Source of the DNA: a plasmid | Sequence record: NZ_CP015284.1 | Strand: one strand, 5' to 3' | DNA length: 64,000 nucleotides | Shown here: in pieces, positions 45,287 to 63,990 of the stretch | Numbering within the stretch: position 1 is the first letter of the stretch | How the letters are laid out: every line of letters begins with the position of its first letter | The notes under the pieces: model-generated | What the model was told of the DNA's origin: nothing | What the model saw: only the letters and a program-made list of their open reading frames with translations | Database searches by the model: none | Position numbers and translations under genes: made by a program

Positions 45287-45308
45287 CAACAATAAATAGA
45301 AAAATGGT

Positions 45309-45335: not shown

Positions 45336-45345
45336 AGAAAAAACA

Positions 45346-46893
45346 ATGACAAAAGCAGAGAATATTCAAGAAATCGTAGATAATCGTTTAAAAGTTCCTA
45401 ACGGATTTTTCAAATGGGCGAAGAATGATTTTCCTATCTATGAATGGTCAAATAAGTCTAAGACAATTATCTCTTCCGACCGAAAAAAATTCTCGGAAAA
45501 GGTTACAAAACGTTTATCACTTAACAGCCGTTTAACCTTTGTAGGTGATACTTTTTACTATGTCTGGATGGGAGTCACAAAGAAACGTATTGAAATGCAG
45601 ATGTATTCTGTGACTCAATCCTTCGAAAAAGGAAAAGAAAAGTTCAAAGTCAGACTTTACAACTTTTATCAGCTTGCCAACAATAAGATTGTTAAAGCAC
45701 ACCGGGATCCATTTCTTTCAGCCCAAAAAGGTAAAGATATCTATAGAAGTGGATTCCAAAATCAGAGGAATGCTCTCTTTTTTGGTTCTGGTGCATTTAG
45801 TGTCTATACGCTTTATGGGGATATGGAAAGTCTTATTCAGAAATTACAAACAAAGTCTGAGTTGAGATATTTAGATTTTGGACAAGTGATTAAAGATAAT
45901 TTTGAGATAAGCTTAGTACTACCTCATCTCTATAAATATAGAGAACGCATTGAATTCGCTCAAAAAATCAAGGCGCGTGGAATCGTCAAAGACTTGGTGG
46001 GGTCTACTTTTTATAGGTCTTATTACTCATCTAGTCTAGGACATGGTCATGCAAATATGGGTAAGGTTACCATGAACTTTCTTAAAAGGAATAAACCGTT
46101 TCTAAAAAATACGGATATGAATGTTGAAAAGGCATTTTTTGAGGAAGATTTGCGTAAACGATATGGTCGAACTTTCAAGGGGTTATACGAGTTGCTTCCA
46201 AACGCTATGATTTCTGACAAGAAGCCACTAATTAAGCGTTTGGAAAGTATCTTACCATCCACTGTGAAACCAATTCGTTTTATTAACTGGATGATGAAAA
46301 ACAATATCTCCCTTCGTGATTATGAGGACTATCAAGAAATGGTAGAAGCTCTGGGAATTCCATTTGATGGAGATTATGTAGTTATCCCAAAAAATTGGGA
46401 AAACAAACATACAGAGATCGTAGAAAATTATTCAACTTTTCTCGAGAATCAACAAGCACGTGGTACATATTTACGTGTAACTAATGCTGTCAGAGATTTG
46501 AGAGCAGAGAAACAACGCCTTGAGGACGAAAAGAAAGAGGCGAAGTTGAGGGTTGAAACAGCTAAACGTTTGACAAACATGATGAAGGCTCAGACCGCAT
46601 TTGACAAGTATGCTTTTATCTTTCCTAAAGACGAAAGTGAAATTGTCAAAGAAGGCAAAACCCTACATCATTGTGTTGGAAGTTATGCAAAAAAACACTT
46701 TGTATACGGAACTTCTATTATTGTCTTTGTTCGTGATAAAGAACACAGAGAAACCCCTCTCTATACTCTTGAATTGAAGAACAATAGGATTATTCAACTG
46801 AAAGGAGAAAGGAACAAATCCGCAGATGAAGAGGCAAAGAAAGAAGCAGAACTATTTTTAGCCCATTGTGGAAAGCTTAACATTCAGTTTTAG
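45346..46893 (+). CDS. Hypothetical protein (515 aa); conserved C-terminal HHCVGSYAKKHFVYG block (PcfJ-like resemblance, tentative)
   Basis: ORF with RBS aaggagaaaaaacaATG. Confidence 0.5.
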   Translation: MTKAENIQEIVDNRLKVPNGFFKWAKNDFPIYEWSNKSKTIISSDRKKFSEKVTKRLSLNSRLTFVGDTFYYVWMGVTKKRIEMQMYSVTQSFEKGKEKFKVRLYNFYQLANNKIVKAHRDPFLSAQKGKDIYRSGFQNQRNALFFGSGAFSVYTLYGDMESLIQKLQTKSELRYLDFGQVIKDNFEISLVLPHLYKYRERIEFAQKIKARGIVKDLVGSTFYRSYYSSSLGHGHANMGKVTMNFLKRNKPFLKNTDMNVEKAFFEEDLRKRYGRTFKGLYELLPNAMISDKKPLIKRLESILPSTVKPIRFINWMMKNNISLRDYEDYQEMVEALGIPFDGDYVVIPKNWENKHTEIVENYSTFLENQQARGTYLRVTNAVRDLRAEKQRLEDEKKEAKLRVETAKRLTNMMKAQTAFDKYAFIFPKDESEIVKEGKTLHHCVGSYAKKHFVYGTSIIVFVRDKEHRETPLYTLELKNNRIIQLKGERNKSADEEAKKEAELFLAHCGKLNIQF

Positions 46894-47009
46894 ATAAGAG
46901 GAGAAAAATAGAATCGTCAATAGGTTATTAGTCAATCTCGAATTTTCTGTGCTATACTAAAGAAAACATTAGATGTATTCTCTAGTAAAATGCTGGGAGG
47001 ACAATAGTT

Positions 47010-47431: not shown

Positions 47432-50400
47432 ATGGAAGAACAAAAAAATAATACTAAAACAATGACTAAAGCAGAAAAGGTTCAAGCTAACCTTTCTGCT
47501 ATTAAACTTGTGAAAGCACTCGAAGCAGATAACCGTCTAGCTGATAGTGCCGAACAAGAAATTCTCTCTAACTATGTTGGTTGGGGAGGACTTGCTAACG
47601 ATTTCTTTGATAGTAAGATTAATCGTTTTGCAAAAGAACGTGATGAGCTAAAAAGTCTTGTCACTAAAGAAGAATATCGTGCGATGGAAATGAGCTCCTT
47701 GACGGCTTACTACACAAGTCCAGAGATTGCTACTGCAATGTGGGATAAGATTGTAGAAAGTGGTTTTAAAGGAGGTAATATTCTTGATCCATCAATGGGT
47801 ACTGGTATCTTCTTTGAAACAATGCCAGAGGACATCAAGAAGAATTCTACACTTTATGGAATTGAACTTGATACCATTACTGGTGCTATTGCTAAACACC
47901 TTCATCAAGATGCTACTGTTTTAGTCCAAGGATTTGAAACAGTAAACTTTGAAGGGACCCCATTTGACTTGGTCATTACGAATGTTCCATTTGCGGATGT
48001 TCGCATTGTCGATAAGGCTTATGATAATAAACCTTATCGTATTCATGATTACTTCTTTAAGAAAGCTATCGATTTGGTACCCTATCATGGGATGGTTGCT
48101 GCTATCACTTCAACTGGTACTGCAGATAAGAGTGCTGGTTCAATTCTGCCAGAACTCCGTCGTAGCGGAACTCAGTTTTTAGGTGGTGTCCGCTTACCAA
48201 ATACTGCTTTTAAAGATGCTGGAACACGAGTGGTAACAGATATCCTATTTTTCCAAAAAGGAGCTTTTATCCCTGTTCCCGATAATAATATCGACTTTTG
48301 GTCTTCAGATAGAAATAAACTCCCCTTTGATAAACGTGTCTCACTCAATCCCTATTTCTTCCAGGATGCTATTTGTAAAAATCCTTGTGTCCTAGGTGAT
48401 TATCAGGTACGTAATTTCAATGGTGGAACACTGGATCTTGTGGTAGATAGCTCTTTTGACTTAGCTTCAGAGCTTCAAGAAGCACTATCAAAAGTAACAG
48501 TGCCTTTCGAAGTAGAGAGACTAGAACCTCGTGATATTATCCTTAAAGAAGAAGTGAATCATCTTGACCAAGGCTTACTTACTTCACTTGATATTCGATT
48601 GAATGAGTATGCTTGTGATAAAAATGGGCGTGTCTATTATCGTGATAACACGTCTATCCGTCCTAGCTCACGCGCAGCTGAAATGATTTTTTATCAAGAC
48701 GAACAAGGACAGTTCGTAAAATACGATGATAAATACAAAGAAGAAGCCATTTTAGACTTTGAAGCAGCAGTAGAAGCAGACCCTAATATTGTTACAAATA
48801 CATGGGTAAGTCAAACACCTTCTAAAGCAGCTAAAAGTAAAGGGCTTTACAAAGGTATTTATTTCTATGAAACACCCCTTACGGATACAGAAAACAAGCG
48901 TATCCGTGGCATGGTTGCTATCAAAAATGCTTATCAAGCCATTATTGATATTCAAATGACGACAGACTATGATGAAGGGAAATTCAAACAACTGCTTGCA
49001 ACACTTAATCAAGCCTACGATACTTTCAAGAAGAAGTATGGTTATATCAATCAAGCGGTGAATGCTCGCCTCTTTGACCGAGATGACCGTTATCCTCTTA
49101 TCGCTAGTCTTGAATTAGAGGAGTTGGACGAGAATGACAGCTCAAAGGTAGTCTTTGTGAAGTCAGATGCTTTTAAAAAGCCAACTATTCGTCCTAAAAA
49201 ACACCTCCATCAAGTGATGTCAGCAGTAGAAGCTTTGAATGTGTCGCTTTCAGAAGGTCGTGGCGTTGATTTGAACCTCATGAGTTCTGTCTATCCAGAT
49301 GTTTCAGAAGATATGATGATTTCAGAACTAGGTGAGACAGTGATGATTGATGTGGAACGCTATATTGATGATAAGACTGTACACTATGTTACTAAGGATA
49401 AATTCCTTTCCGGTGATGTTCTTGCTAAACGTGATTGCATTAACTCTCTCATTGAAGACGGAGATACACAAGCGGATTGGGAACGATATTTGGAATTGAT
49501 TTTATCTGTTGTACCAGAACCAGTTGTCTTATCTGATATTGATTTCAGCATTGGTTCTAGCTGGATTCCTAGTAACGTCGTTTCTCAATGGGTGTTTAGT
49601 GAATTGTTGGATGAAAAGGTTGGTCTCCATTCTGAAGAAGCTAAATCACTATTAGTGACATCCAGAATCGGACGAGGTTTCAACGAACGCTTGTTAAACT
49701 GCTATATGAGTCGTCAATCTAACCTTCGTTTAGGTCTACGTGATGAGTACAATAAAAGCTACTCACACGCAACAGATATTGTGGCTCACTTGCTTACAAG
49801 TAATCAACCAACAATCATGCGTAACTTTGGTACGACTGAAAATCCTGTACGTAAGGTTGATGAAGTGGCAACAGCAAACCTACGTGAGTGTGAGCGTGTT
49901 CTACAAGAAAGCTTTAAGAACTTTATTCATGAAAACCCAACAGTTCAAGAAGTGATTGAGGATACCTACAATGAAGTCTTTAATCGCTATGTGACACGTC
50001 AATATGATGGAAGTCTCTTGGAATTTGATGGGTTGGCTAAAGGAGTAGAGCTTCGCCCTCACCAAAAAAATGCGGTACAACGTATTCTTGAAGAGAGACG
50101 TGCACTACTTGCTCACGAAGTGGGTACTGGTAAGACACTAACCATGATTTCTGCAGCTTTCAAGATGAAAGAACTAGGGCTTATTCATAAACCATTGTTT
50201 GTGGTTCCATCTAGTCTAACAGCACAATTTGGTCAAGAAATTATGCGTTTCTACCCTACCAAGAAAGTGTTTGTTACGACTGAGCAGGACTTTGAAAAGT
50301 CACGTCGTCGCTTGTTCGTTTCTCGTATTCTAACGAGCGACTATGATGGTATTGTGATTGGGCATTCTCAATTTGAGAAAGTTCGTGTCTCACAAGAACG

Positions 50401-52948
50401 TGAACAAGCCTTTATTTCGGAAAAGATTGATGAGCTTGATGAGATCATTAGTTACGCAAAAGCTAATGATGACAAAATCACTTTTAAGCAAGCACAATCT
50501 ATGCGTAGAAGTCTTGAGGCAAGCTTAGAAACGTTGCTTGAAAACAAGACTGGTATTGATGAGTTTATCAACTTTGAAAGCCTTGGTATTGATATGCTCT
50601 TTGTTGATGAAGCCCACGGGTACAAGAATGTCCGTCCTATGACACGTTTGGGGAACGTTGCTGGTATTACCAACCGTACCTCAAAAAAGAATATGGATAT
50701 GGAAATGAAGGTGCGCGTGCTTCAAGAAGAGCATGATACACGTCACGTTGTCTTTGCGACTGGAACACCAGTTTCCAACTCTATTAGCGAAATGTATACG
50801 ATGATGAATTATCTTCAACCAGATGTCATGGAACATTTTGGTGTCAGTTTCTTTGATGCTTGGGTTGGTGCGTTTGGGATTGTTGAGAATAGTCTTGAGC
50901 TTAACCCTACTGGAGACAAGTATATTTCACGTAAACGCTTTGCTAAATTTATGAATCTCCCTGAGCTGATGGCGATTTACCGTCAGACTGCAGATATCCA
51001 AATGACTGAAGACCTTAATCTTCCAGTTCCTATGGTAGAAAAGGTAGCGGTTGAAAGTCAGTTGACGGATAACCAAAAAGTTTATTTGGATGAGCTTGTA
51101 GAACGCTCAGACCGAGTTAAAAATGGGAGTGTAGATCCTAGTGAAGATAACATGCTTAAAATCACTAGTGAAGCCAGAAAGTTGGCTTTAGATATGCGTT
51201 TGCTTGATGCAGAGCTCTATGTAAGAGCTGATGCAGACAAACTTATGCAAGTGGTTGAGCGAGTGGATAAGATTTATCACATGGAAGCTAAGCATAAAGG
51301 GACACAGATGATTTTCTCTGACCTTGGAACTCCTAATGGCAAAGGTTTCTCTGTTTATCAAGAGTTGAAAGATTTGCTTGTTGAACGTGGGATTCCAGAA
51401 GAAGAGATTGCTTTTATTCACGATGCTGCTAACAAAAAGGCTAAGCTCCAACTTCAACGTCAAATGAATGCTGGTGAGATTCGTATTCTCATGGCCTCAA
51501 CGGAAAAAGGGGGAACCGGTCTTAACGTACAACGTCGTATGAAAGCTGTTCATCACCTCGATGTGCCTTGGAAACCGTCTGATATTATCCAACGTAATGG
51601 ACGTTTGGTTCGTCAAGGAAATATCTATCGTAAGGTAAATATTTTCCACTATATCACTAAAGGAAGCTTTGATAACTACCTTTGGCAGATTCAAGAAACA
51701 AAGCTTCGTTATATTACTCAAATCATGACCAGTCGTACACCGATGCGAGCTTCAGAGGATATTGACGAGCAAACACTCTCAGCCTCTGAATTTAAAGCTA
51801 TTGCGACAGGTAATCCATATCTTAAACTTAAGATGGAACTTGATAACGAATTTGAGTTGTTGTCTAATCGTCGTAAGGCTTGGAAACGTGATATTGCTTT
51901 GTCTCAAAAACGTATTAAGCAGGCCCTTAAAGATAAGGCAATTTACGAGAAGAAACTTTCTCTATTAGTCCAGGATAAAGAGCTTGCAGAAAAGACAAGA
52001 CCTTGGAAAGAAGTGGTTGAAAAAGAAGATGGTAAGAAATATGAGGTTGAGCATAACCCATTTGTTATGACATTTGAACCAGATGGATACGAAGCAACTA
52101 AGAAAGATGTTGCAGGGAATCAACTGAACTATGCTATGCAGATGAATGTTGCCGCTGATCCACTCCATATGAAAATGACAACCCTTGCTCATTATCGTGG
52201 TTTTGTCCTTCGTGCGTTGGAACAAAAATCACCTTGGCAACCAGAACGCATGCTTGACTTGCATATTATTGGTCAAAATAGCTATGCTGTTCGTCTAGAC
52301 TTTGCGAGTGGTATTGGGACTATCCAGCGTATCAACAATGTTATTGATGGTATGGATAAACAAGCCAAACTCTTACAGGAAAACATTGAACGTTGTTCAG
52401 AAACTATTAAGCGAGGAGAAGCTGCAGATGTTTTTGCAGACCAAGCTCGTCTTGACTATGTATCAGCAAAACGTGCCATTGTTAATCCTCTTATCGAAGT
52501 AGAGGACGAGTCTAAGAAGCCTACTGTAGAACAAATTGAAGAAGCAATCAATGCTTTTGACTTGCGTTATAAGGCAGACCATCCAGAAATGGATGAGGAC
52601 TCAGATGTAAAAGTTAGCTCAATCACTGAGGAATATAGTACTAGCTATGATCCTGATGAAGAAAGCGAACTTGTTGAAGCTATCGATGAGTCAGTAGATG
52701 AAGCAGAAACTGCCTTCGAGGAAGAAGAAGTAGTTGCTAAAGAAACCGTTGAAGAAACGACTCATGTTGTTGTTTCACAAGAAGTTCTTGATATGGCTGA
52801 TGACTTCCTAGAAAGTATTTCTGAACTCTTTGGAATGACTGAAGAACATAATGATAATGTTGCTACAGAAGTAGTTTCTGAAACCTCTGTTAATGAGGTA
52901 GAAAAAGTAGAAGTTTACGAAGAAATTTCACTATTTGACTTTGTTTAA
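47432..52948 (+). CDS. N6-adenine DNA methyltransferase fused to an SNF2-family helicase (1838 aa), the conjugative-element anti-restriction type
   Basis: MTase motif [13 protein letters not shown]. Helicase motif [14 protein letters not shown], motif [14 protein letters not shown], motifs [19 protein letters not shown]...[11 protein letters not shown]. Acidic C-terminal tail. Confidence 0.85.
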
Positions 52949-53057: not shown

Positions 53058-53594
53058 ATGAAATTAACTTATGAGGACAAGATTCAGATATATATACTGA
53101 GAAAACAGGGGAGAAGCTTCAAAGAGCTTTCAAAAAGATTTGGTGTGGATGTTTCTGGACTAAAATATATGGTGAGGTTGATTGAACGTTACGGAATAGA
53201 AATCGTCAAAAAAGGGAAGAATCGTTACTATTCTCCCGAATTAAAGGAAGAAATAATTAATAACGTTCTGCTTAAAGGTCGTTCACTAAGAAGTGTATCT
53301 TTAGATTATGCTCTACCCAATCCTTCTCTGTTGAAAAATTGGATAGCACAATACAAGAAAAATGGGTATACTATTGTTGAAAAAACAAGAGAGAGAGTAC
53401 CTAAAATGGGACGTAAACGTAAGAAAACTTGGGAAGAAATGACAGAACTAGAGCGACTCCAAGAGGAGAATGAACGCCTACGTACCGAGGTGGCCTACCT
53501 AAAAAAGTTAAAAGAGCTAGAAGACAGGGACGAAGCCATACAGCGAGAAAGGCAGAGACAATTAGAAAAATGGTTTCAGGAGGATTTCGACTAG
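53058..53594 (+). CDS. IS3-family transposase OrfA (HTH plus leucine zipper)
   Basis: Coiled-coil C-terminus [22 protein letters not shown]. OrfB begins in the -1 frame 25 nt before the stop. Confidence 0.85.
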
Positions 53595-54409
53595 ATTTAC
53601 TTCTTGAAACGGCTGGTTTAGCTCGCTCAACTTACTACTATCAGTTGAAACAACTAGATGGATTTGACAAAGATAAAGAGCTTAAAGCTGAAATTCAATC
53701 AATTTATTGTGAGCATAAAGGAAATTACGGCTATCGTCGAATGACTCTTGAATTGAGAAATCGTGGCTTCATGGTAAATCATAAGAAAGTGCAACGTCTG
53801 ATGAAGGTTCTTGGTTTAAGTGCTCGAATTCGTCGTAAACGTAAGTATTCTTCATATCAAGGAGAGGTTGGTAAGAAAGCAGAGAATCTCATTCAACGCC
53901 AGTTTGAAGCATCAAAACCAATGGAAAAGTGCTACACAGATGTGACAGAGTTTGCCATTCCAAATAGCACACAGAAATTGTATTTATCGCCTGTTTTAGA
54001 TGGCTTTAACAGCGAAATTATTGCCTATAATCTCTCAACTTCACCAAACTTAAAACAAGTGAAAGCTATGTTAGACCAGGCCTTCACAGAGGAGCATTAC
54101 GAAAATACAATTCTCCATAGTGACCACGGTTGGCAATCCCAACATCAGTATTATCATCAATTTTTAGAGGATAAAGGGATCCAACCGTCCATGTCACGTA
54201 AGGGAAATAGTCCAGACAATGGTATGATGGAGTCCTTCTTTGGCATTCTTAAGTCTGAGATGTTTTATGGTTATGAGAAGACGTTTCACTCACTTGAGCA
54301 ATTGGAACAAGCTATTGTAGACTATATTGATTATTACAACAACAAACGAATTAAGGTAAAATTAAAAGGACTCAGTCCTGTGCAATACAGAACTAAATCC
54401 TTTGGATAA
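53570..54409 (+). CDS. IS3-family transposase OrfB (DDE/rve integrase core)
   Basis: [13 protein letters not shown]...[24 protein letters not shown]...[13 protein letters not shown]. Confidence 0.85.
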
Positions 54410-54493
54410 ATTAAATGTCTAACTTTTTGGAGTCAGTACAAAATAGGGTGTTTTAAATGAAGACAACGACGTTTTTATGATAATATTATATTT

Positions 54494-54937
54494 ATGAAGT
54501 TACATCTTTTTAAAACACGTATAAATAATATTCTACTCTCAGAAACAATAAAATATCTTTTTTTTGGTGTATTGGCAACCATAGTGTATTTTATAACAAG
54601 GACTATTACATATTTAATATTTGATTCTGCTATATTTTCTTCAGTGATAGCAAGCATTATATCAATCCTCTTTGCATTTTTTACAAACGATATTTTTGTA
54701 TTTAATCAATCTTCACAAAAGCGTATAAAAAGACTTATAAAATTTTTTATAGCACGACTTTTTACTCTACTCTTAGATATGTTCTTTGCTTGGTTTCTTG
54801 TAGATAAATATCCTAATATTTTAGGTGTTCTAGTTAAACATAATATACAAATTGTTAATATTTTAGAATCTTTTATATCACAATTTTTTATTATTGTACT
54901 AAATTACATTATAAGTAAATTTTTGATTTTTAAGTGA
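54494..54937 (+). CDS. GtrA-like small membrane protein
   Basis: Four hydrophobic helices. N-terminal ...KYLFFGVLATIVYF GtrA-like pattern. No clear RBS. Confidence 0.45.
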   Translation: MKLHLFKTRINNILLSETIKYLFFGVLATIVYFITRTITYLIFDSAIFSSVIASIISILFAFFTNDIFVFNQSSQKRIKRLIKFFIARLFTLLLDMFFAWFLVDKYPNILGVLVKHNIQIVNILESFISQFFIIVLNYIISKFLIFK

Positions 54938-55028
54938 AATGTCTCGCACGACAGCTCTCTGCAGGAGTTCCTCGGAAGGAGCGTTTATCGTTTTGATGTG
55001 GCAAAGCTAAGTCAAAACAGAATAAACG

Positions 55029-55265
55029 TTACTCTTTTGGAAATAGCTTACAAAGTTGTTCGATAGCTGAAAACATGGATTTGGCTGTTCTGTCTGGTAT
55101 CTTGAAAGCTAAGTAAAAGCGCGTTTTTCGCTCTAGGAAGGTCGCTAAACAGCCCTTGCTTTTGCCTCTGGAAGACACCACAGTATCGAGCTCCCAGTGA
55201 TCAAAGGTCTCACGATTCCTGACCTCTCTAGATGTTAGCTTTTCGTCACCCACTACAGTTGACAA
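55029..55265 (-). pseudogene. IS30-family transposase fragment
   Basis: ETFDHWELDTVVSSRGKSKGCLATFLERKTRFYLAFKIPDRTAKSM matches the HxEGDTV...G core of IS30 transposases. Only 78 aa remain. Confidence 0.6.
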
Positions 55266-55296
55266 AGAACCTTATATCTCATCTTATGTAAAACCA

Positions 55297-55335
55297 AAAG
55301 TCCCCCTTGGTAGTCAAACCAAGGGGGACTTTTTC
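55297..55335. terminator. Strong bidirectional rho-independent terminator
   Basis: aaagtcccccttggtagtcaaaccaagggggactttttc. Confidence 0.7.
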
Positions 55336-55453
55336 GAGGAAAATATAAGATTGATATTCTCCAACGCTCTTAAGAGCAATTCTATTTTCTATAAGTATTC
55401 TAGTATATTTAGATACATATGTCAACAGAAAAATATAATTTATTTAGCTTTAT

Positions 55454-56548
55454 TTAAAAATGATATTTTGAGTCCATAAAAATAAATTTTTTCCAGTCTT
55501 TTAAATTTGGATTCCCCATTCGTGTCAATAAACGAGTATTCAAGTCAAAATCAGGTGATTTGAAATGTTTATTGTTTCTATAAATAATTGAATTGATATG
55601 TTTTTTTAATGGTTTAGTACTTTCAAAATAATTGACAATCTGTAAAGTGTCAAATAAAGATAGGGCTGAAGGAGGTGTACCTGTTTCAGATGGTGTTAAA
55701 TTAAATAATGAAACCAAGCTCGCATTTAACTTAATATATTTTGGAGATTGGTAGCGATATACTAATGAACCGTGGGCACAAAAATTTCGAAGTGATTTAA
55801 TAATATCAAACATATTTAAAAATTCATTTCGATAAAATAATGGCATATTAAAGTCTTTCATTACCTTATTTAGTACGCTAGGATCTAAGTAATGTAGTAG
55901 ACAGATTACCTCTCCTAAGGTCATTGTTTCAACTGCGACCCAAAAAGGTACTGCAACGTGAGGATGATAGGTATAATTTGGAGCTTGGCCTGTACGAAAA
56001 GTTGTCTGACCGCTTTGGCTGGTATAACGTGAATCTGTATAAAACTGATAGTCAATGTGGTCGTTTTCGTTGATTAATTTTGTAAGATAAAAAGGTTTAA
56101 AAAGGATAAAATTATCAAATTCGTCATAGATCCTTTTGTTTTGGTAATTTACAAAGGGATAGTTGTTAGCAAATTGACTATTTCTTGGGTCTATATAATT
56201 TGATTTTAAGGTATAGTTCATAGTGTCACTTATTGTTAGACAATAAGTTTGTGTGAAATGGTGAGCTACTGAATTTTTTAACTTTGATTCAATATTATCT
56301 AAAATCTCCAGAATTGTAGTCGCCAATTTTTTATTAAATTTATAAATTGTAATAAAGTCATCTAATGTAACTTTATTGAATCGTTTGGGATTTCTACTAG
56401 AGAGTAAAAGGTTTTCAATTCCATTAAATAAATTAAAGTAATTATATTTTATTAGGGCATCATCAAGTTCTTTATCTTCAAAATACAATTTTCTTTCATG
56501 TAATTTTTGTTTTAAAGAATGACGCCCTTCGCTTTGTTTAATAGCCAT
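55454..56548 (-). CDS. Abortive-infection protein of the Abi_2 (AbiD/AbiF-like) family
   Basis: 364 aa. LRNFCAHGSLVYRY (the RN..AH.. motif of Abi_2). Isolated gene between IS remnants. Confidence 0.6.
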   Translation of the reverse strand: MAIKQSEGRHSLKQKLHERKLYFEDKELDDALIKYNYFNLFNGIENLLLSSRNPKRFNKVTLDDFITIYKFNKKLATTILEILDNIESKLKNSVAHHFTQTYCLTISDTMNYTLKSNYIDPRNSQFANNYPFVNYQNKRIYDEFDNFILFKPFYLTKLINENDHIDYQFYTDSRYTSQSGQTTFRTGQAPNYTYHPHVAVPFWVAVETMTLGEVICLLHYLDPSVLNKVMKDFNMPLFYRNEFLNMFDIIKSLRNFCAHGSLVYRYQSPKYIKLNASLVSLFNLTPSETGTPPSALSLFDTLQIVNYFESTKPLKKHINSIIYRNNKHFKSPDFDLNTRLLTRMGNPNLKDWKKFIFMDSKYHF

Positions 56549-56654
56549 GTGTTACTCCATATCCATAATATCTTGTCTTTAAGTATATCATATTTTAATA
56601 TTTTTTTATCACAATTCATCATGTAGTGATACTGTCCATAATTTTGTGTAAACA

Positions 56655-56740
56655 CTCAAGTAGAGTTTGTACTGACCTCAAAAAGTTAGACATTTAATTT
56701 ATCCAAAGGATTTAGTTCTGTATTGCACAGGACTGAGTCC
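56655..56740 (-). mobile_element. Right-end fragment of a second IS3 copy (IRR plus the last 13 codons of orfB)
   Basis: Reverse complement of tactgacctcaaaaagttagaca matches the IS3 IRR. Encodes ...[13 protein letters not shown]. Confidence 0.7.
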
Positions 56741-58371
56741 TTTTCTACAATTTGTCAAGTATATCAAGGTATTTGATGAAAAATAGTTTGAGTTCCATAT
56801 GTCAAACGAAGGAAATTGTCTTTTTTTTTTTGAGCTAAAGTTTAGTGTAAAAAGTGTACACAAAACCAACACCTTACCTAGTGATTTTTTTGATAAGGTG
56901 TTACAATAATATGGCATAAACAATTTTACCGATTTTGGGTAGAAGTATAATCGTAAAGTTTGTTATGCGTTATGAGGTAATACATTGTTCTGATGAGACG
57001 ATGTATAGAGGCAATCGTGTGTGGTTTGGTTGAAGTCACTTGCGATTGTCTTTTTCGTTTATCATAGAAGTCTGCGATATGACAAGGATTGCTGTGACTA
57101 GCTGAACCTATGTTATGAATGCACTTAAAGAGAATCTTTCTAGCATAGGGATTCCCACGTTTGGTGATATGTTCCTTGGCTAGAAAGTCCCCAGATTCAT
57201 AGTGTCTGAGGTCAATGCCGATAAAAGCATTGATTTGATTGGCAGAGTGAAATCGACGAATGTCACCAAGTTCACCAATAATGCTTGTCGCTGTAGTTTC
57301 AGCTATTCCAGGAATAGAGAGAAGAATCTCGTATTCTGGCAAAGGTTGAGCCAATGTTACCATCTCCTCTAAAACACTTTTTCTATATTCAGAAAGCCTA
57401 AGTAACTCCCCTGCATAGTATTTGACCTCTTCCATCATTGGAGAGGTTTTCTTGACCGCACAATAAGACTGATTAGCTAGTTTTGTAAGCTTATCTACTA
57501 AGTAAGTCACACGTTTTTCAGAGATGCGTTTTGATGTAGACTGACGGATGATAGCTCTTAATGTGGCGTCATCCAACTCCAGTACAAAACTATTACATGG
57601 AAAAGTTATGACCAAGTTCCAATATTGTTCCCCAGTTGGTGCCGACAAGATGTTTTCCAATTCAGGAAAAGTGACCTGTAAAACCTTGTGTAGACGGTTT
57701 TTAGCGCAGACAATATCTTCAGTAAGATTCTGATAGAAACGGCTAAGGTCTCGTAATTCTTGATAAAGCGCTTCTTGGACATAGCTTGGTTTACGATTGA
57801 GGATGAACTGAGACGCAGCTAGTTTTTCAGCGTCAATCTTATCAGTTTTACGTACTCGTAAGCTATCTAGTTGTTTTTTGGAGTCTAAGGGACTGAGGCG
57901 TGTATAAGCGTAACTATTATCCTCAAAGAAGGCCTGAAGACGACGAGAATAGACACCAGTCGCCTCGAAGACAATCTCTGGCTGGTGAACAGTCTTCAAG
58001 TCTCCAAGTAGTCGATTAAATCCGATGGCATCATTGGGTATGGTATAGCCATGTACTTTCTCTCCATTGATCAAGATGGCTACTTCTGAACTTGCTTTAC
58101 TCACGTCAATCCCAAAAACTACTCGCATTATATTACCTCTTTGTCTTGAATGATTCCTTGCTTTAGTGATGTCATTTTCAATACTCGACGTTTTTCGTCC
58201 CACATACTTTGATAACATTCTTCCTAAAACAGGTGTCTTGCCAGTTTTAGTTACGACGTCTAGCGCCAAAGGACTCATCGACTTAACAAGACACCTCTAC
58301 TTTAACATAACGAAAAAAAGTAGTGAGTACTTTCTCCCGTCGGAGATTTTCTCACTACTAATCTTAGTATG
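56741..58371 (-). mobile_element. IS110-family element inserted into the IS3 remnant
   Basis: Boundaries inferred from where the IS3 orfB reading frame is broken (KVKLK | GLSPVQYR). About 1.63 kb, no terminal IRs, as is typical for IS110. Confidence 0.6.
56926..58128 (-). CDS. IS110-family (DEDD) transposase
   Basis: N-terminus MRVVFGIDVSKASSEVAIL and C-terminal LLSIPGIAETTATSIIGELGD. ATG at 58128 preceded by GAGG. Confidence 0.85.
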   Translation of the reverse strand: MRVVFGIDVSKASSEVAILINGEKVHGYTIPNDAIGFNRLLGDLKTVHQPEIVFEATGVYSRRLQAFFEDNSYAYTRLSPLDSKKQLDSLRVRKTDKIDAEKLAASQFILNRKPSYVQEALYQELRDLSRFYQNLTEDIVCAKNRLHKVLQVTFPELENILSAPTGEQYWNLVITFPCNSFVLELDDATLRAIIRQSTSKRISEKRVTYLVDKLTKLANQSYCAVKKTSPMMEEVKYYAGELLRLSEYRKSVLEEMVTLAQPLPEYEILLSIPGIAETTATSIIGELGDIRRFHSANQINAFIGIDLRHYESGDFLAKEHITKRGNPYARKILFKCIHNIGSASHSNPCHIADFYDKRKRQSQVTSTKPHTIASIHRLIRTMYYLITHNKLYDYTSTQNR

Positions 58372-58700
58372 TTTTAATTTTACCTTAATTCGTTTGTTGT
58401 TGTAATAATCAATATAGTCTACAATAGCTTGTTCCAATTGCTCAAGTGAGTGAAACGTCTTCTCATAACCATAAAACATCTCAGACTTAAGAATGCCAAA
58501 GAAGGACTCCATCATACCATTGTCTGGACTATTTCCCTTACGTGACATGGACGGTTGAATCCCTTTATCCTCTAAAAATTGATGATAATACTGATGTTGG
58601 GATTGCCAACCGTGGTCACTATGGAGAATTGTATTTTCGTAATGCTCCTCTGTGAAGGCCTGGTCTAACATAGCTTTCACTTGTTCTAAGTTTGGTGAAG
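58297..58700 (-). pseudogene. 5'-truncated IS3 orfB fragment (codons about 170 to 270), with an adjacent small plus-oriented piece of the same orfB at about 58725..58770
   Basis: [38 protein letters not shown]... is identical in protein sequence to the intact copy. Plus-oriented gagcataaaggaaattatggctatcgccgaata matches orfB codons about 40 to 55. Confidence 0.7.
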
Positions 58701-59138
58701 TTGAGAGATTATAGGCGAAATTCAGGAAAATTATTATGAGCATAAAGGAAATTATGGCTATCGCCGAATAGTGGACCATCTAGAATACAACAAACGATAG
58801 ACTTTTGGTGGACATCAATTCCACAACAAGTTTCAATCATAACTTCCATTACAAAAACCTCCTGTTAACTATTGAACAATAGAACAAGAGGCTACTAGTA
58901 ATTTTATTTTCATGCTCAAGGCATATTCGAGTTATCTCATGACTCTTGTTCATCCAGTTTTTGTTACAGGCTAGGCAAAGCCCTATTAAAAACTACGGAT
59001 TTGTATTGTTCACCTTCATTATAAGCCGAACTTTCTTTTCTGTCATGAGTTAGCAGGCTAATCCTGCTTAGAGTTTTTGTTGCACTTCATTTTACAACAG
59101 GGTGAAAAGTTTTCTTCATGTATTTGTCGAAATTCTAA

Positions 59139-59166
59139 ATTGAATAATCGTGAATAAATGTTATAA
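59139..59166 (+). promoter_or_regulatory. Candidate sigma-A promoter for the protease-lanKC operon
   Basis: ttgaat, then about 17 nt, then tgttataat (extended -10), about 40 nt upstream of the RBS. Confidence 0.45.
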
Positions 59167-59204
59167 TACAGACGAGTAAGCGATTTCTTTAGACGGAGGA
59201 AAGT

Positions 59205-59885
59205 ATGGTCGAAAAAATTCGGATGTACATCGGAGTTCTTTCTTATAAAAAGGAAGGCCGAGAGGGACAAAAGGGAACAGGTTGTATTTTTAGTTATAAA
59301 GGGAAATGGTTCTTAGCAACTGCAGCACATTGCGTTTATGATATAGATGAAGATAAATTTTACACCGATTTTAAATTTACTCAGCCAAATAGTGGAAAGG
59401 AATATATACTTGGTGATGTTTACTTACATAAATTTTGGTCGAGTTTATATGCCCCAGAGTATGATATTGCTTTTTTTAATATTTATTGTGATGATAATTT
59501 TTTTAATTTGGATAGGACTTATTTAACACCTTATTTTGAAATTTCAAATGATAACAAATTTACAATTGCTGGTTTTCCTGGAAAGATACTTAGAAATAAA
59601 TTATATATAAAGAGGGATAACAACGGGATTAGCGATAGAATGTATTCGTCGAGTTTAATAGGAATAAGGACCTGTAAAAAAGAGGGAATGTCGGGAGGAC
59701 CTTTAATATGTCAAAATGAAGATAGTTTGAGTATAGTTGGTACTATTAGTTTGTCTTTTGTATCTGAAAAAGGGATTTTATGGTGTGCTCCATGGAATAA
59801 AGACTTCAAGGCTATTCTTGAGTTTCTGACAAGTGATAAACAAGCGGAGCCAGACTTTATGGAAATGTATAATTGGAAAATATAG
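59205..59885 (+). CDS. Trypsin-like (S1 family) serine protease, cytoplasmic
   Basis: His LATAAHCV, Asp EYDIAFF, Ser KEGMSGGPL. No signal peptide. RBS gacggaggaaagtATG. Confidence 0.7.
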   Translation: MVEKIRMYIGVLSYKKEGREGQKGTGCIFSYKGKWFLATAAHCVYDIDEDKFYTDFKFTQPNSGKEYILGDVYLHKFWSSLYAPEYDIAFFNIYCDDNFFNLDRTYLTPYFEISNDNKFTIAGFPGKILRNKLYIKRDNNGISDRMYSSSLIGIRTCKKEGMSGGPLICQNEDSLSIVGTISLSFVSEKGILWCAPWNKDFKAILEFLTSDKQAEPDFMEMYNWKI

Positions 59886-59900
59886 AAATGGAGGATAACA

Positions 59901-62465
59901 ATGGATGTAAGGTATGAAATGTATTTAGCCCCCAATAATAAATTTTACAAACGAGCAGGAGCAACCAACAAAAAGAAAACTATGCTTTATGTAAAAGATT
60001 TACCAGAGGGATGGTATTCAAAAATTGGTAAGGAGAAGCACTGGCATTATTGTGGTCCAATTGGTGTTCCTATCCCACCACAAGGTTGGAAGATTCACAT
60101 CAGTTCTACATTAGACAATGCTCAAAAAACACTTGATATCGTATCAAAAATACTAATCTCTAGAAACACTCATTTTAAATTTGTAATGAGTTCATGGGAT
60201 TTATTTGTGAAAAATTCAAAATATGGTGATAGAAGCGCTTCGGGAAAATTTATTACAATTTATCCGGCGACGATTTATTTGTTTTTTACTTTACTTGATG
60301 AATTGGATAAAGCACTTTCTGGATTAGAAAATGGGGCTTATATATTAAATGATAATCGTTGGTTCTTTGGAAATGTATACTTTAGATACGGTGGTTTCTT
60401 AGAAATGCATACTCAAGAGGGAGAAGATGGTATAATTAATGAGTACGGAGAAATTATACCAGATCAACGAATTCCTGGATATGTTGTTCCTTCTTTTGTG
60501 GAAATACCTGAGAAATTAAAAGCGATGGAGTTGGAAAAAGAAAATAAGTCTTTAGATGCTAGTAAATTAGATGATTATAATATATCTGAAGCAATGCATT
60601 TTAGTAATGGAGGTGGAGTTTATAAAGCAACTAACGTATCTTCTGGAGAAAATGTAATAATAAAGGAGGGAAGGCCGGAGGCAGGTCTGGACAGTACAGG
60701 AAAAGATGGTTTTAAAAGGCTATCAATTGAATTTGAAACATTGTCTAAATTGGCAGATGTTGATGAAGTTGTTGATGTTTATGAATATTTTAAAGCGTGG
60801 GAAAATGTTTATTTAGTTGAAGAAGTGGTAAATGGGATTCCTCTCCAATCTTGGATTGCTCAAAATTATCCATTTGGTGGATCAGAGGATAAAAAGAAAA
60901 GCTATCTTCGTAAGACGTTGGATATTACAGAAAAAATAAAAACTGGTTTACAAAAGATACACGATAAAGATGTTGGAATAGGTGATTTATCACCATCTAA
61001 TATTTTAATTAACAATGATACACTCGAAATCAAGTTTATAGATTTCGAAACTGCGGGAGTTGCTGATGCTAAATATTCACCAAGTTTAGCCACTCCGGGT
61101 TTTGTTTCAAAGTATTCTAAAACAAGGAAACAATCTGATTGGTTTAGTTTTTATAGGATTGTATATTCTATGTTAGCACCAATTGCTCCAATTCAAGATA
61201 TCGAAATTAAAAATGAACAAAAAATAGATAAGTGGATTTTAATGACATTTGGTAGCGAGGCATATAATTACGTTAATAACTTAAAAAAACTTCTTCCTCT
61301 ATCTAAGCGTATGTATTACTCAGATGTTCAAGAAAACAGATTGGATTATGATTTAGATAATTTAACTTCAAAAGTTCGTCTAGGAATAATATCTCATTTA
61401 CAACCTAGTAAGAAGCAATTGATTCCGGGAGACATAAGGCAATTTGAATACTCAGGTGGTATGTATAATGTTTTAACTGGTGGTTTTGGGGTAATAATGT
61501 CACTTGTTAGAACTGGGGAAATTTCACAATCTATTAAAGAATGGGCAATTAGATATTCAAAGGAAAAGTATTTGGCGGAGTTAGATTCGGGACTATTTTC
61601 TGGAAAATCAGGAATTGCTTGTATATTATTTGAATTAGGAGAAATCCAACGCTCTAAGGAAATAATTGGCTCAATTACTATTCCAAATGAAGCTTCAGAT
61701 ATTTCTCTAATGACAGGTCTATCTGGGATAGGACTTGCACTTTTATCATTTTATACTTCATTAAATGAACATTCATATTTAGAAAAGGCTACCAAAGCTG
61801 CTAATGAGATAAAAAATATCTTTAGTAAAAATACTGAAATCTATTCAAAAGATCCAGATTTTTTTCCTAAAGGTCTATTTGATGGATGGAGTGGAGCTGT
61901 GATGTTTTTCGGTGCATTATATACAGTCACAAAAAATAAAGAGTGGCTTGATTTTGCAGAGAAAATGATGAGTAGAGAATTAGAAAGTTGTGTTTTAGAT
62001 GATGATGGAATTCTTCATATTGAAGATGAGCAAAGACTACTTCCCTATTTAGCGGGAGGAGGAGTGGGTGTAGCAGTCGCTCTACTTTCTCTTGCTAAGA
62101 AAACAAATAAAGAATTTTACTTTAAAAAATTTGAACAGACTCTTCCATTAGCCTCAACTGTTTGTTGTTATAATAGTGGTCTATTTAGAGGATATGCTGG
62201 TTTTTTACTTTTTGTTTCCTTTTTAGAACAAGAGTATGGTATAATAAATAGAGAGAAAACGCTGACATTACTGAGTACAATTCAATTGTATGCAGTAACA
62301 ACGACAGGGCAGGAAGTAATGTTTCCTGGAGACTATGGCTACAGATTGTCAGGTGATTTATTTTCTGGTTCTTCAGGTGTACTTATTGCTCTAGAAGCAA
62401 TGAGAGGGAAGAGTTGGAAAAACTGGATTCCATTGATTTCTGAAACGATGGATGTGTTATTGTGA
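59901..62465 (+). CDS. Class III lanthipeptide synthetase (LanKC: lyase, Ser/Thr kinase and Zn-free LanC-like cyclase)
   Basis: Kinase catalytic loop HDKDVGIGDLSPSNILI and IDFETAG (DFG-like). C-terminal repeated Gly motifs (SGKSGIACIL, GWSGAVMF, GLFRGYAGFL, SGSSGVLIAL). No CHG zinc ligands. Confidence 0.75.
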   Translation: MDVRYEMYLAPNNKFYKRAGATNKKKTMLYVKDLPEGWYSKIGKEKHWHYCGPIGVPIPPQGWKIHISSTLDNAQKTLDIVSKILISRNTHFKFVMSSWDLFVKNSKYGDRSASGKFITIYPATIYLFFTLLDELDKALSGLENGAYILNDNRWFFGNVYFRYGGFLEMHTQEGEDGIINEYGEIIPDQRIPGYVVPSFVEIPEKLKAMELEKENKSLDASKLDDYNISEAMHFSNGGGVYKATNVSSGENVIIKEGRPEAGLDSTGKDGFKRLSIEFETLSKLADVDEVVDVYEYFKAWENVYLVEEVVNGIPLQSWIAQNYPFGGSEDKKKSYLRKTLDITEKIKTGLQKIHDKDVGIGDLSPSNILINNDTLEIKFIDFETAGVADAKYSPSLATPGFVSKYSKTRKQSDWFSFYRIVYSMLAPIAPIQDIEIKNEQKIDKWILMTFGSEAYNYVNNLKKLLPLSKRMYYSDVQENRLDYDLDNLTSKVRLGIISHLQPSKKQLIPGDIRQFEYSGGMYNVLTGGFGVIMSLVRTGEISQSIKEWAIRYSKEKYLAELDSGLFSGKSGIACILFELGEIQRSKEIIGSITIPNEASDISLMTGLSGIGLALLSFYTSLNEHSYLEKATKAANEIKNIFSKNTEIYSKDPDFFPKGLFDGWSGAVMFFGALYTVTKNKEWLDFAEKMMSRELESCVLDDDGILHIEDEQRLLPYLAGGGVGVAVALLSLAKKTNKEFYFKKFEQTLPLASTVCCYNSGLFRGYAGFLLFVSFLEQEYGIINREKTLTLLSTIQLYAVTTTGQEVMFPGDYGYRLSGDLFSGSSGVLIALEAMRGKSWKNWIPLISETMDVLL

Positions 62466-62502
62466 TTGAGTTTTTATTAAGATATTATATTTTATATAAT
62501 CC

Positions 62503-63552
62503 CAATTTGTAAAATTAAGCTAGACAGAAAAAGCCATCTATGTTAGGCTCAGATAAACACCACATTTGTCTGAAAGGAACTAACATAAATGACCTATACT
62601 CATCTTATCACAAACGAGCTTGTAATGATAGAGGCTTACTATCAAGAAGACATAAAAGTTTCAGATATTGTGACTTCACTTGGCAGATCAAAACAGACAA
62701 TCTACAATGTCATCAACTATCTGAAAGAGGGGCACTCTGCTTATGATTACTATAACCGATATAAAATCAATAAGAAACGCTGTGGCAGGAATAAAACCAG
62801 TCTTACGCAATCAGAAAAAGATTTTATCCAAACTCATTTAGAACAAAATTGGAGCCTTGATGTCATTAAAGGAACTTATCCAGATAGGGTTGCTTGTTCT
62901 ATGAGAACTCTCTATCGACTAGCAGACCATGGTATTCTAAAGAAAGAGGATCTCCCTTGGAAAGGCAAAAGAAAACCAAATGGTCATAGCGAAAAACGAG
63001 GAAAACAAGCGTTGCGCAGAGATTTAAGTGAGAGAGCAGACAGTCATCCTAATTTTAAGACGGGATTCGGTCATCTAGAAGGGGATACAATTGTGGGAGA
63101 AAAACACAAAAGTGCAGTCATTACCTTAGTAGAATGCTTCTCAAAAGCCATCATCACACTGAAAATCAATGGATGGAAAGCAAGTGATATTGAGGCCTCC
63201 ATCAATCAATGGTTGTCTCAAGTTCCCAGTCATCTCTTTAAGTCGATAACTTTTGATTGTGGGAAAGAATTTTCTAATTGGAAATCTATTTCGAATGCAC
63301 ATGACATTGATATTTTCTTTGCGGATCCAGGATGTCCTGGTCAAAGAGGTCTCAATGAACATTCTAATGGCTTATTAAGACGAAATGGATTACCGAAACA
63401 GATGGTTTTTACTAATATTTCTCAAAAATATTTATCAGCTATAGCTGATAAAAGAAATAGAATTTCTAGGAAATCATTGAATTATCAATCACCATACCAA
63501 GTTTTTCTGAGTTACTTGAAAAGTCTAACTTAATTTAACAATTTAGGAATAT
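62503..63552 (+). mobile_element. IS30-family insertion sequence (boundaries approximate)
   Basis: Imperfect terminal IRs aatttgtaaaatta (left) and taatttaacaattt (right) around the transposase gene. Confidence 0.6.
62589..63533 (+). CDS. IS30-family transposase (314 aa)
   Basis: GFGHLEGDTIVG...TFDCGKEF...LNEHSNGLLRR DDE region. Confidence 0.85.
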   Translation: MTYTHLITNELVMIEAYYQEDIKVSDIVTSLGRSKQTIYNVINYLKEGHSAYDYYNRYKINKKRCGRNKTSLTQSEKDFIQTHLEQNWSLDVIKGTYPDRVACSMRTLYRLADHGILKKEDLPWKGKRKPNGHSEKRGKQALRRDLSERADSHPNFKTGFGHLEGDTIVGEKHKSAVITLVECFSKAIITLKINGWKASDIEASINQWLSQVPSHLFKSITFDCGKEFSNWKSISNAHDIDIFFADPGCPGQRGLNEHSNGLLRRNGLPKQMVFTNISQKYLSAIADKRNRISRKSLNYQSPYQVFLSYLKSLT

Positions 63553-63634
63553 AGGGTATTATTAAGTGAAATCAATTTTTTTACAATAGATTCATACAGA
63601 GTCACTTATTCTTAAATAATGAAGGAGAACAGAA

Positions 63635-63754
63635 ATGAAAAATATCTTATCTTTACAACAACTTAAAGTAAAAGAAAATACTAAATTGATGGCTAAATCA
63701 TCAAAAAGCATAAACTGTAAAAATAGTAGCCATGCTAGCTGGTTTGTTTGCTAG
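63635..63754 (+). CDS. Class III lanthipeptide precursor peptide 1 (39 aa)
   Basis: Own translation MKNILSLQQLKVKENTKLMAKSSKSINCKNSSHASWFVC. Leader ILSLQQL resembles the class III ILELQ motif. Core has SKSINC plus SHASWFVC (SxxSxxxC). RBS gaaggagaacagaaATG. Confidence 0.6.
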   Translation: MKNILSLQQLKVKENTKLMAKSSKSINCKNSSHASWFVC

Positions 63755-63810
63755 TCTCTAAAATTAAAATTACTTTTCATTTTTTATCTTAGTTTTATAG
63801 GAGGAATCAA

Positions 63811-63921
63811 ATGAAGAAAATACTATCTTTACAGCAATTAAAAAAAACAGAAAGAGCTAAAACGAAATCTAGTATGAGTTTGAACTGTCAAATGAGTAGT
63901 AATAATAGCTGGTTTTTCTGC
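63811..63921 (+). CDS. Class III lanthipeptide precursor peptide 2 (36 aa)
   Basis: Own translation MKKILSLQQLKKTERAKTKSSMSLNCQMSSNSWFFC. Same leader and SxxSxxC plus SxxSxxxC architecture. RBS taggaggaatcaaATG. Confidence 0.6.
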
Positions 63922-63957
63922 TAAAAAAGTATTTTAAATGTTTACCTAATAATACCC

Positions 63958-63990
63958 TAACTAGCCTTGAAAGTTTTTCAAGGCTAGTTG
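63958..63990 (+). terminator. Hairpin after the precursor genes
   Basis: ctagccttgaaagtttttcaaggctag (coordinates approximate). Confidence 0.45.

Follow-up and report, generated by a model that had tools for sequence, protein, structure and literature searches.

A Class III Lanthipeptide Cluster of Streptococcus salivarius with a LanKC-Linked S1 Protease and an IS30 Insertion beside the Precursor Genes

Introduction

Of all steps in the production of class III lanthipeptides, the removal of the leader is the one that limits it most and is understood least. The leader peptidases established for this class are FlaP (S9), AplP (M1), PttP1/P2 and ThurP3/P4 (M16), and AmyP (S8) (PMC10885120); such enzymes are often encoded outside the cluster and are clade-specific. 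The M16 pitrilysins are the proven leader peptidases of the andalusicin clade (PMC10604976), and a "tandem labionin" architecture was assigned to basal Firmicutes clades of the lyase-kinase-cyclase synthetase LanKC by Grigoreva et al. (PMC8169954). Here we describe a class III lanthipeptide gene cluster found at positions 59139–63990 of a 64,000-nucleotide stretch of the plasmid record NZ_CP015284.1. This whole stretch is called the window, and all positions without another label refer to it. The exact proteins of the cluster are recorded as Streptococcus salivarius in RefSeq.

The cluster is a real and uncharacterized one, and its parts are already labeled by standard annotation, where they appear as class III lanthionine synthetase LanKC, trypsin-like serine peptidase, class III lanthipeptide, and IS30 family transposase. 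What goes beyond that annotation is a family of LanKC-linked S1 proteases, a set of precursors of three subtypes, and an IS30 element that occupies one and the same site in every copy sampled, beside an apparently intact promoter of the precursor (lanA) genes. A small, soluble, cluster-encoded protease linked to one LanKC clade is a directly testable candidate for a leader peptidase and, if the assignment is true, a practical tool for peptide maturation. Moreover, the cassette resides on plasmids of human commensals and of industrial and biocontrol bacteria (S. salivarius, S. sanguinis, staphylococci, and Bacillus thuringiensis israelensis), so that its product could influence how bacteria of the mouth and gut compete and could bear on the design of probiotic strains. 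The existence of three precursor subtypes, here called alpha1, alpha2, and beta, also makes a multi-component class III lantibiotic conceivable; the literature searched contains no characterized example.

The Synthetase and Its Precursor Peptides

Five co-directional genes on the + strand encode proteins of 226, 854, 314 (the IS30 transposase), 39, and 37 amino acids (aa), and we read this region as a class III lanthipeptide cassette that the window end cuts off after its 5' two-thirds. The synthetase gene, lanKC (59901–62465, +; 854 aa), has its start codon 15 nucleotides (nt) past the end of the protease gene. Its product scored 784 bits against the NCBIfam class III equivalog NF038151 (cut-off 575), while it failed the class IV LanL equivalog with 291 bits (cut-off 650). 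The original prediction, which was made from the letters alone, had placed the protein in class III on account of a kinase core with a DFE motif and a LanC-like domain lacking zinc ligands, and both observations were borne out. The lyase domain (PF25816 RamC_N, residues 32–210) reached 170.4 bits (cut-off 27). The suggested profile check of the other two domains placed both above threshold, at 68.9 bits for the kinase (PF00069 Pkinase, cut-off 31.7; motifs HDKD at 354, GDLSPSN at 361, and DFE at 381) and 47.4 bits for the cyclase (PF05147 LANC_like). A scan for motifs, as opposed to a column-by-column alignment of the ligand positions, showed no CH or CHG zinc-ligand dipeptide anywhere in LanKC; a cyclase without the Cys-Cys-His zinc ligands distinguishes class III from the class IV LanL. 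By analogy with established LanKC enzymes, the protein would dehydrate and cyclize its cognate precursors in an NTP-dependent manner.

The closest solved structures were 9wj0 (540 bits) and ThurKC 8sao (527 bits). Since its motif positions match the numbering in the corresponding paper, 9wj0 was identified, by sequence, as TherKC, the class III-c representative. LanKC carries the cyclase motifs LIxGDIRQ and GLxDGWSG that were named for class III-c. Its substrates, however, carry a pair of motifs, where those of III-a and III-c have one STxSNxC only. On this comparison of motifs, LanKC may belong to III-c or to another subclass. Two other candidates for near relatives, PDB 9ugq ("SalKC") and PneKC, proved to be distant, at about 255 bits each.

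Two precursor genes lie downstream. The first, lanA1 (63635–63754, +), follows an AGGAG ribosome-binding site and encodes an alpha1-type peptide of 39 aa, MKNILSLQQLKVKENTKLMAK-SSKSINCKNSSHASWFVC; the second, lanA2 (63811–63924, +), follows AGGAGG and encodes an alpha2-type peptide of 37 aa, MKKILSLQQLKKTERAKTK-SSMSLNCQMSSNNSWFFC. Both passed NF038159 (55.6 and 42.6 bits, cut-off 30), and both have the leader motif ILSLQ at residues 4–8. The genes had been described as unannotated; RefSeq lists them as WP_198166467 and WP_198166468, which could not be known from the letters alone. The predicted core pattern, SxxSxxC followed by SxxSxxxC, is present in A1 as SSKSINC and SHASWFVC and in A2 as SSMSLNC and SNNSWFFC; two details of A2 needed correction, its length (37, not 36 aa) and its second motif (SNNSWFFC, not SNSWFFC).

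In an alignment of 31 cassette precursors, we found an (I/V)L(S/A)LQ motif, a linker of about 11–17 residues, and an 18-residue core of the form SxxSxxC-xxx-SxxSxxxC. This common design corresponds to the tandem labionin architecture mentioned above. Three subtypes could be distinguished. Alpha1 peptides (QLKAx-SSxSVxCK.SS.ASWFxC), to which A1 belongs, have orthologues in cassettes of Streptococcus, Bacillus, Priestia, and Staphylococcus. A2 groups with the alpha2 members of other genera (SSxSLGC.PSSNTSWFFC). Beta peptides (SN[IV]S[VI]xCKKxS[ST]xSxFxCV and a short tail) occur in relatives and are the only ones that extend past the last Cys, by 2–6 residues; the beta and alpha2 peptides of relatives also pass NF038159. 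Since A1 and A2 are orthologues of two distinct conserved subtypes, they are not recent duplicates of each other, and the product is probably multi-component (A1 and A2). Bacillus, Priestia, Staphylococcus, and several metagenome loci have the beta gene in the gap that separates the protease gene from lanKC. S. sanguinis and the S. vestibularis-like lineage have it a few kb past the exporter gene, as part of an inverted, partial duplicate of the cassette end (14634–15336, −, of contig L022; 16116–16942, −, of contig L021) that comprises an 86-residue remnant of the LanKC C-terminus, a second alpha1 gene, and the beta gene itself.

Conservation of the Cassette and Its Exporter

The original prediction saw no transporter before the window ends, which is true. 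On contigs with identical LanKC and protease, a 573-aa ATP-binding cassette (ABC) exporter gene starts 9 nt past the window end, at the equivalent of position 64009. The exporter covers only profile positions 187–707 of 708 in the model of peptidase-containing bacteriocin ABC transporters (TIGR01193; 240 bits, cut-off 524). Its Pfam matches are ABC_membrane and ABC_tran only, with no C39 peptidase domain. In the S. vestibularis-like lineage (LanKC 83% identical) and in S. sanguinis (77%), the protease gene, lanKC, lanA1, lanA2, and the ABC gene are contiguous and free of insertion sequences (IS). These relatives bear out that the protease belongs to the lanKC operon, and they tie the precursors to LanKC, as had been proposed: their lanA genes are directly adjacent to lanKC, and in the window only the IS30 intervenes. 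Between species, the ratio of nonsynonymous to synonymous substitution rates (dN/dS) was 0.08–0.16 for LanKC, 0.16–0.23 for the protease, and 0.10–0.18 for the exporter, which indicates purifying selection.

From the comparison of gene orders, the ancestral cassette reads as S1 protease, lanKC, lanA-alpha1, lanA-alpha2, ABC exporter, membrane protein, helix-turn-helix (HTH) regulator, and lipoprotein. In S. salivarius, the exporter gene is followed by IS110 and ISL3 transposase genes and then by genes for a membrane protein (DUF2975), a regulator (HTH_26), and a 156-aa protein that bears a lipoprotein signal. A trio of regulator, membrane protein, and lipoprotein accompanies the cassette in every genus, drawn from different families (15602–16803 of contig L004; L066–L068 and L070): DUF2975, HTH_26, and lipoprotein in Streptococcus, and PadR, DUF1700, and a lipoprotein with an NDxxF motif in Bacillus, Priestia, and Staphylococcus. 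The trios look like analogous modules for immunity and regulation.

An S1 Protease Linked to LanKC

The first gene of the cluster (59205–59885, +), whose ATG follows a GGAGG ribosome-binding site, encodes a predicted cytoplasmic serine peptidase of the S1 family (chymotrypsin fold; 226 aa), a candidate class III leader peptidase. Its only Pfam matches are Trypsin and Trypsin_2, and it has no NCBIfam match. The catalytic triad is found in the motifs TAAHC (H42), YDIAF (D87), and GMSGGP (S163) and is invariant in close relatives and in 36 diverged ones. An AlphaFold2 model with a predicted local distance difference test score (pLDDT) of 71 matched bacterial S1 proteases in Foldseek with probability 1.0, with template modeling (TM) scores of 0.66–0.71 to 3wy8 and 3cp7 and of 0.63–0.66 to 1p3c. 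No signal peptide or pro-region was seen in any member of the family, so the protease appears to be cytoplasmic.

The association with LanKC is tight. An exhaustive profile search of 1.84 billion representative proteins, used in place of a word-based homologue search that gave only 5 clusters, returned 36 clusters of the protease family at E ≤ 1e-10, with full-length members of about 213–238 aa. The protease gene was directly upstream of a LanKC gene in all 14 lineages examined (Streptococcus, Staphylococcus, Bacillus, Priestia, and gut metagenomes). LanKC was immediately downstream in each of the 13 metagenome loci with a full-length protease match (28–99% identity), with the beta gene between them in several; the ABC exporter came next wherever the contig was long enough, and most of these loci had recognizable precursor genes. 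Even a protease lineage of 48% identity keeps the same gene order (L024–L027). In RefSeq, plasmids of Priestia aryabhattai, B. thuringiensis israelensis, and Staphylococcus simulans likewise show a protease, a class III lanthipeptide, lanKC, 2–4 further class III lanthipeptides, and an ABC transporter.

The protease is outside the established families of class III leader peptidases (S9 FlaP, M1 AplP, M16 PttP/ThurP, S8 AmyP), and no S1-family example was found in the literature searched, where only S9, M1, M16, and S8 enzymes appear. Nevertheless, the protease most likely removes the leader, given that a C39 domain is missing from the exporter and that the cassette conserves no second peptidase. 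We conclude, by association and exclusion, that it is a dedicated component of the cassette and most probably its leader peptidase. The same role had been suggested from its type and position, and linkage to LanKC in every lineage examined, together with an exporter lacking a C39 domain, strengthens that suggestion.

Some loci at the edge of this distribution deserve mention. In S. epidermidis FDAARGOS_913, the protease is split in two pieces (1515–2110 of L070) that score 80.8 and 81.5 bits against the family profile, and the gene table of the plasmid database PLSDB has only a 75-aa hypothetical protein at this pseudogene. On a plasmid of Anaerococcus prevotii (L071, 73–2259), a radical-SAM CXXX-repeat peptide maturase is directly 5' of the class III cluster, and two systems for peptides made on the ribosome and modified after translation (RiPPs) are thus side by side. 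The L. plantarum cluster is broken by an IS3, and no protease was found in that degenerate locus.

IS30 and the Conserved Elements around the lanA Genes

The IS30 between synthetase and precursors had been recognized correctly as intact, and comparison with the empty site moved its limits from 62503–63552 to 62501–63547 (+; 1047 bp). The uninterrupted intergenic region of L021 and L022 reads TATATAAT/ATAGGG, and alignment with this spacer identifies AAT target-site duplications at 62498–62500 on the left and 63548–63550 on the right. The transposase open reading frame (ORF; 62589–63533, 314 aa) matches NF033563 with 230 bits over profile positions 1–267 of 267, and the terminal inverted repeats (62495–62525 and 63523–63553) are 31 nt long and 84% complementary. 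A DDE transposase, terminal inverted repeats, and a 2–3-bp duplication, the marks of the IS30 family, are thus all present. The window holds one copy. The insertion site was identical in all 16 S. salivarius loci (two protein alleles, many human metagenomes), and the element was found in neither the S. vestibularis-like nor the S. sanguinis cassettes. The transposase was truncated in one sample; the cassette ORFs were full length in 16 of 16 loci. As a separate observation, the transposase of the window differs by 18 nt from that of L001 (12689–13633), despite identical flanking protease and LanKC, which could reflect collapsed reads of multi-copy IS in metagenome assemblies or gene conversion between IS copies.

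The IS30 is placed immediately 5' of a conserved box, TAGGGTATTATTAAGTGAA (63552–63570, +), upstream of lanA1. The box is kept in L021 and L022, with a consensus of TAGGGTATTwTTAAG common to all three Streptococcus lineages. A candidate lanA −10 element, TACAAT (63582–63587, +), was read from the sequence about 35 nt 3' of the insertion; the aligned column is TATAGT in L021 and TATAAT in L022. The box is possibly a regulator site overlapping the −35 region, and the native lanA promoter is probably 3' of the IS30 and intact. Since this conserved candidate promoter is downstream of the element, the insertion probably leaves it joined to the lanA genes, and silencing by simple promoter separation seems less likely than the original prediction implied. 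A hybrid promoter, with a −35 in the right end of the IS30 (63535–63540) and a −10 at 63557–63562, is also possible. Upstream of the protease gene, a consensus scan gave a candidate promoter of the protease-lanKC operon (59140–59167, +; TTGAAT, a 16-nt spacer, and TATAAT with a TG extension; 10 of 12 positions plus TG), 38 nt 5' of the start codon and past a terminator-like hairpin at 59052–59068. The scan gave 22 sites against 22.9 expected from shuffles, with no enrichment in this AT-rich DNA, so the site is a candidate only.

An inverted copy of the box (63941–63959, −) is present downstream of lanA2, and the two boxes form a 19-nt inverted repeat, 89% complementary, that brackets lanA1 and lanA2. 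The HTH regulator encoded downstream may use the two as operators. RNA pairing of one box with the other over this distance was considered, but L021 has two uncompensated differences in the arms, and a protein-binding site is more likely. A perfect 14-bp hairpin (63959–63989, +) follows between lanA2 and the exporter gene and is conserved in L021 and L022; its RNA fold has an energy of −22.2 kcal/mol (z −3.6), and none of 200 shuffles was as stable. No T-run follows it, and the hairpin is likely a partial terminator or an mRNA stabilizer. The inverted box and hairpin are nearly invariant across the three Streptococcus lineages, where the synonymous divergence (dS) is 0.8–1.6. The spacer between lanA2 and the exporter is a constrained noncoding element, most simply read as a regulator site with a partial terminator or stabilizer.

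Replicon and Surroundings

The replicon appears to be of the megaplasmid type, and the window is plasmid-borne or plasmid-derived. Window positions 33400–47000 share 90–93% identity with known S. salivarius megaplasmids of 138–207 kb and contain backbone genes for a Rep3-type initiator (35608–37071), a tyrosine recombinase (integrase), a nonspecific endonuclease, DUF3854, a VirB11-like ATPase, PcfK, and PcfJ. In a megablast of the cluster against PLSDB plasmids, the IS30 was the sole match, and the cluster is in no PLSDB record at that sensitivity. Class I and class II salivaricin loci are housed on S. salivarius megaplasmids (PMC10235938). Salivaricin 10 of S. salivarius was considered as the product and ruled out, as it comes from a class II (SrnM) system at a different locus. 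The literature searched for class III products of the Streptococcus species concerned yielded nothing but oral-microbiome papers of no relevance to the cluster.

Two giant ORFs are present, at 24210–32714 (−; 2834 aa) and 47432–52948 (+; 1838 aa), the latter encoding a SNF2/ResIII helicase-type protein according to Pfam matches on identical contigs. Between this SNF2 gene and the protease gene is an IS-bounded block (53058–58779) with a complete IS3 (orfA/orfB; 53058–54409), an Abi_2 abortive-infection-like gene (55454–56548, −), an IS110 (56926–58278, −; DEDD_Tnp_IS110), and, adjoining the latter, a truncated IS3-family transposase fragment (orfB; 58297–58779, −; rve, rve_2, rve_3). This last fragment borders the cluster upstream and is not biosynthetic. 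The block is missing in other S. salivarius alleles (L028–L032) and inverted in L009, which suggests IS3-mediated rearrangement.

Proposed Pathway and Alternative Explanations

The sequences establish the identities of the genes, the conservation of the cassette, the insertion site, and purifying selection between species. The pathway that follows is inferred from what is established for LanKC enzymes, and the substrate of the protease, the function of the promoters, and current expression of the cluster are likewise a matter of inference. LanKC would bind the (I/V)L(S/A)LQ leader helix, its kinase domain would phosphorylate core serines, and its lyase domain would eliminate the phosphate to give dehydroalanines. 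The zinc-free cyclase domain would then add cysteines to form two ring systems in succession (labionin or lanthionine) along the 18-residue core. The cytoplasmic S1 protease, a dedicated component co-inherited with the cassette, would most likely remove the leader, and an MsbA/MdlB-like half-transporter would export the product. In S. salivarius, an IS30 has inserted into the lanKC-lanA1 spacer with a 3-bp duplication. As a whole, we think it likely that the locus is a class III cassette derived from an uninterrupted ancestor, with an S1 leader peptidase, a multi-component product, and an IS30 beside a probably intact lanA promoter. A more specific reading can be put only tentatively, and we place it a little on the doubtful side of balance: that an undescribed family of small, cytoplasmic S1 proteases without pro-region is dedicated to leader removal in a class III cassette that is plasmid-borne and widespread in Bacillota, that the products are multi-component (alpha1, alpha2, and beta) with two tandem labionin-type rings each and would constitute the first multi-component class III lantibiotic, and that S. 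salivarius carries a reduced variant, with alpha1 and alpha2 only, which tolerates the IS30.

Several results weigh against the first, more general of these readings. IS elements flank and interrupt the cassette in S. salivarius, with IS3 and IS110 upstream, IS30 inside, and IS110 and ISL3 between the exporter gene and the downstream module, and a search of the 64-kb window and about 10 kb downstream found no beta gene, so the S. salivarius cassette may be a reduced version without beta. The differences between S. salivarius alleles in the protease, LanKC, and exporter genes number only 17 (6 synonymous and 11 nonsynonymous), too few to show continuing selection. As for the protease, its Trypsin match is marginal (PF00089, 26.6 bits; gathering threshold 20.6). 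The model falls below a pLDDT of 50 at residues 128–134, 146–149, and 185–187, around the specificity pocket, and substrate preference is therefore not readable from it. S. epidermidis tolerates a frameshift that makes a pseudogene of the protease in this slot, and no protease was found in the Anaerococcus LanKC locus. Moreover, the residue before the first core Ser differs between members of the family (K, A, G, Q, N, or V), and no shared cleavage motif supports the leader-peptidase role; a Lys-specific, trypsin-like cut after the Lys that precedes the core would fit Streptococcus but fails family-wide.

Part of this evidence fits another view, that the S. salivarius copy is a decaying, nonproducing remnant in which the IS30 uncoupled the precursors, other IS broke the cassette, and beta was lost, and which persists through recent spread of the megaplasmid. 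Four kinds of IS in and around the cassette and the missing beta-type gene speak for it; the 6 synonymous and 11 nonsynonymous allele differences are compatible with relaxed selection, and related loci do decay, as the IS3-broken L. plantarum cluster and the S. epidermidis pseudogene show. On the other hand, none of the five cassette ORFs is shortened in any of the 16 S. salivarius loci, the single truncation being that of the IS30 transposase in one sample, and the exact LanKC is listed in 224 blocks of the sequence collection. The IS30 is upstream of the conserved box and −10 element and not inside them, the protease-lanKC operon retains a promoter-like site and a ribosome-binding site, and alpha1 and alpha2 are intact. 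We regard decay as rather doubtful, while giving it substantial weight. It is unlikely, in our view, that the S1 protease is a cassette component with a different task, either trimming the C-terminal tail of beta or degrading intracellularly active peptide to protect the producer. In Bacillus, Priestia, Staphylococcus, and several metagenome loci the protease gene and lanKC directly flank the beta gene, and only beta has a tail; both points would suit such a task, as would the lack of a conserved P1 residue before the core; many class III leaders are also removed by peptidases encoded outside the cluster (PMC10885120; PMC8960859). But in Streptococcus the protease is under purifying selection though the beta gene is kilobases away or was not found, and no peptidase domain is present in the exporter. 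AplP, an M1 enzyme that removes class III leaders, is reportedly cytoplasmic, and the predicted location of the S1 protease matches it, which counts for leader removal. In sister clades, the same cassette position is held by proven M16 leader peptidases (PMC10604976).

The peptides might also be surface-active or signaling molecules like SapB and AmfS of Streptomyces rather than antibiotics. Both gave weak, sub-threshold matches to the RamS/SapB model PF19402 (19.8 bits for A1 and 18.6 for A2, cut-off 24.3), as did A1 to NF033212 (17.6 bits, cut-off 25). Several class III products lack antibacterial activity, which is in keeping with such a role. However, the cassette has an exporter and a trio of lipoprotein, membrane protein, and regulator of the kind usually tied to immunity, S. 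salivarius plasmids of this type are the home of bacteriocin loci (PMC10235938), and the related andalusicin is antibacterial (PMC8169954); we therefore consider a nonantibiotic role improbable.

Comparison with Known Systems

With regard to the core peptide, labyrinthopeptins of Actinomadura resemble the precursors described here in having an 18-residue core with two consecutive Ser/Ser/Cys labionin motifs. They differ in being actinobacterial, in having SxxSxxxC in both motifs and extra Cys residues that form a disulfide, and in having no known protease in the cluster. PneKC/PneA of S. pneumoniae (class III-b; PMC11330476; PMC7268733) is the other streptococcal class III system, with an SxxSxxxC motif and a cluster-encoded protease, but its synthetase is distant (255 bits), and the cluster has an S9 prolyl oligopeptidase and an intramembrane metalloprotease of the CAAX family (PMC7268733), not an S1 enzyme. 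TherKC of Thermoactinomyces (class III-c; PMC13504147; PDB 9wj0) is the best-scoring solved relative and shares the cyclase motifs, whereas its substrate TherA has the single motif STxSNxC, and its identity to LanKC, judged by eye in the alignment, falls far short of the >55% that class III-c members reportedly share.

The andalusicin system of B. thuringiensis with its synthetase ThurKC (class III-a; PMC8169954; PMC10604976) is also a Firmicutes class III system with a zinc-free cyclase, a VLxLQ-type leader motif, a labionin motif of the form S(x)2S(x)2C in the core, and a nearby ABC transporter. A Thr-rich core with a single labionin motif is typical of this kind of cluster, which has many near-identical precursor copies, a methyltransferase, and pairs of M16B pitrilysins that remove the leader; the B. 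mycoides cluster of andalusicin type similarly has two pitrilysin (M16) genes instead of the S1 protease, and a bacteriocin published from the pig gut is an andalusicin-type peptide. In contrast, the S. salivarius cassette and its relatives combine a tandem, two-motif core of 18 residues and up to three precursor subtypes with an S1 protease; the precursors of the window have two motifs and no Thr-rich stretch, and neither a methyltransferase nor a pitrilysin is found in the cassette. The M16 enzymes and AmyP act in Firmicutes systems, and the S1 protease described here would do the same proposed job with a different fold and catalytic family.

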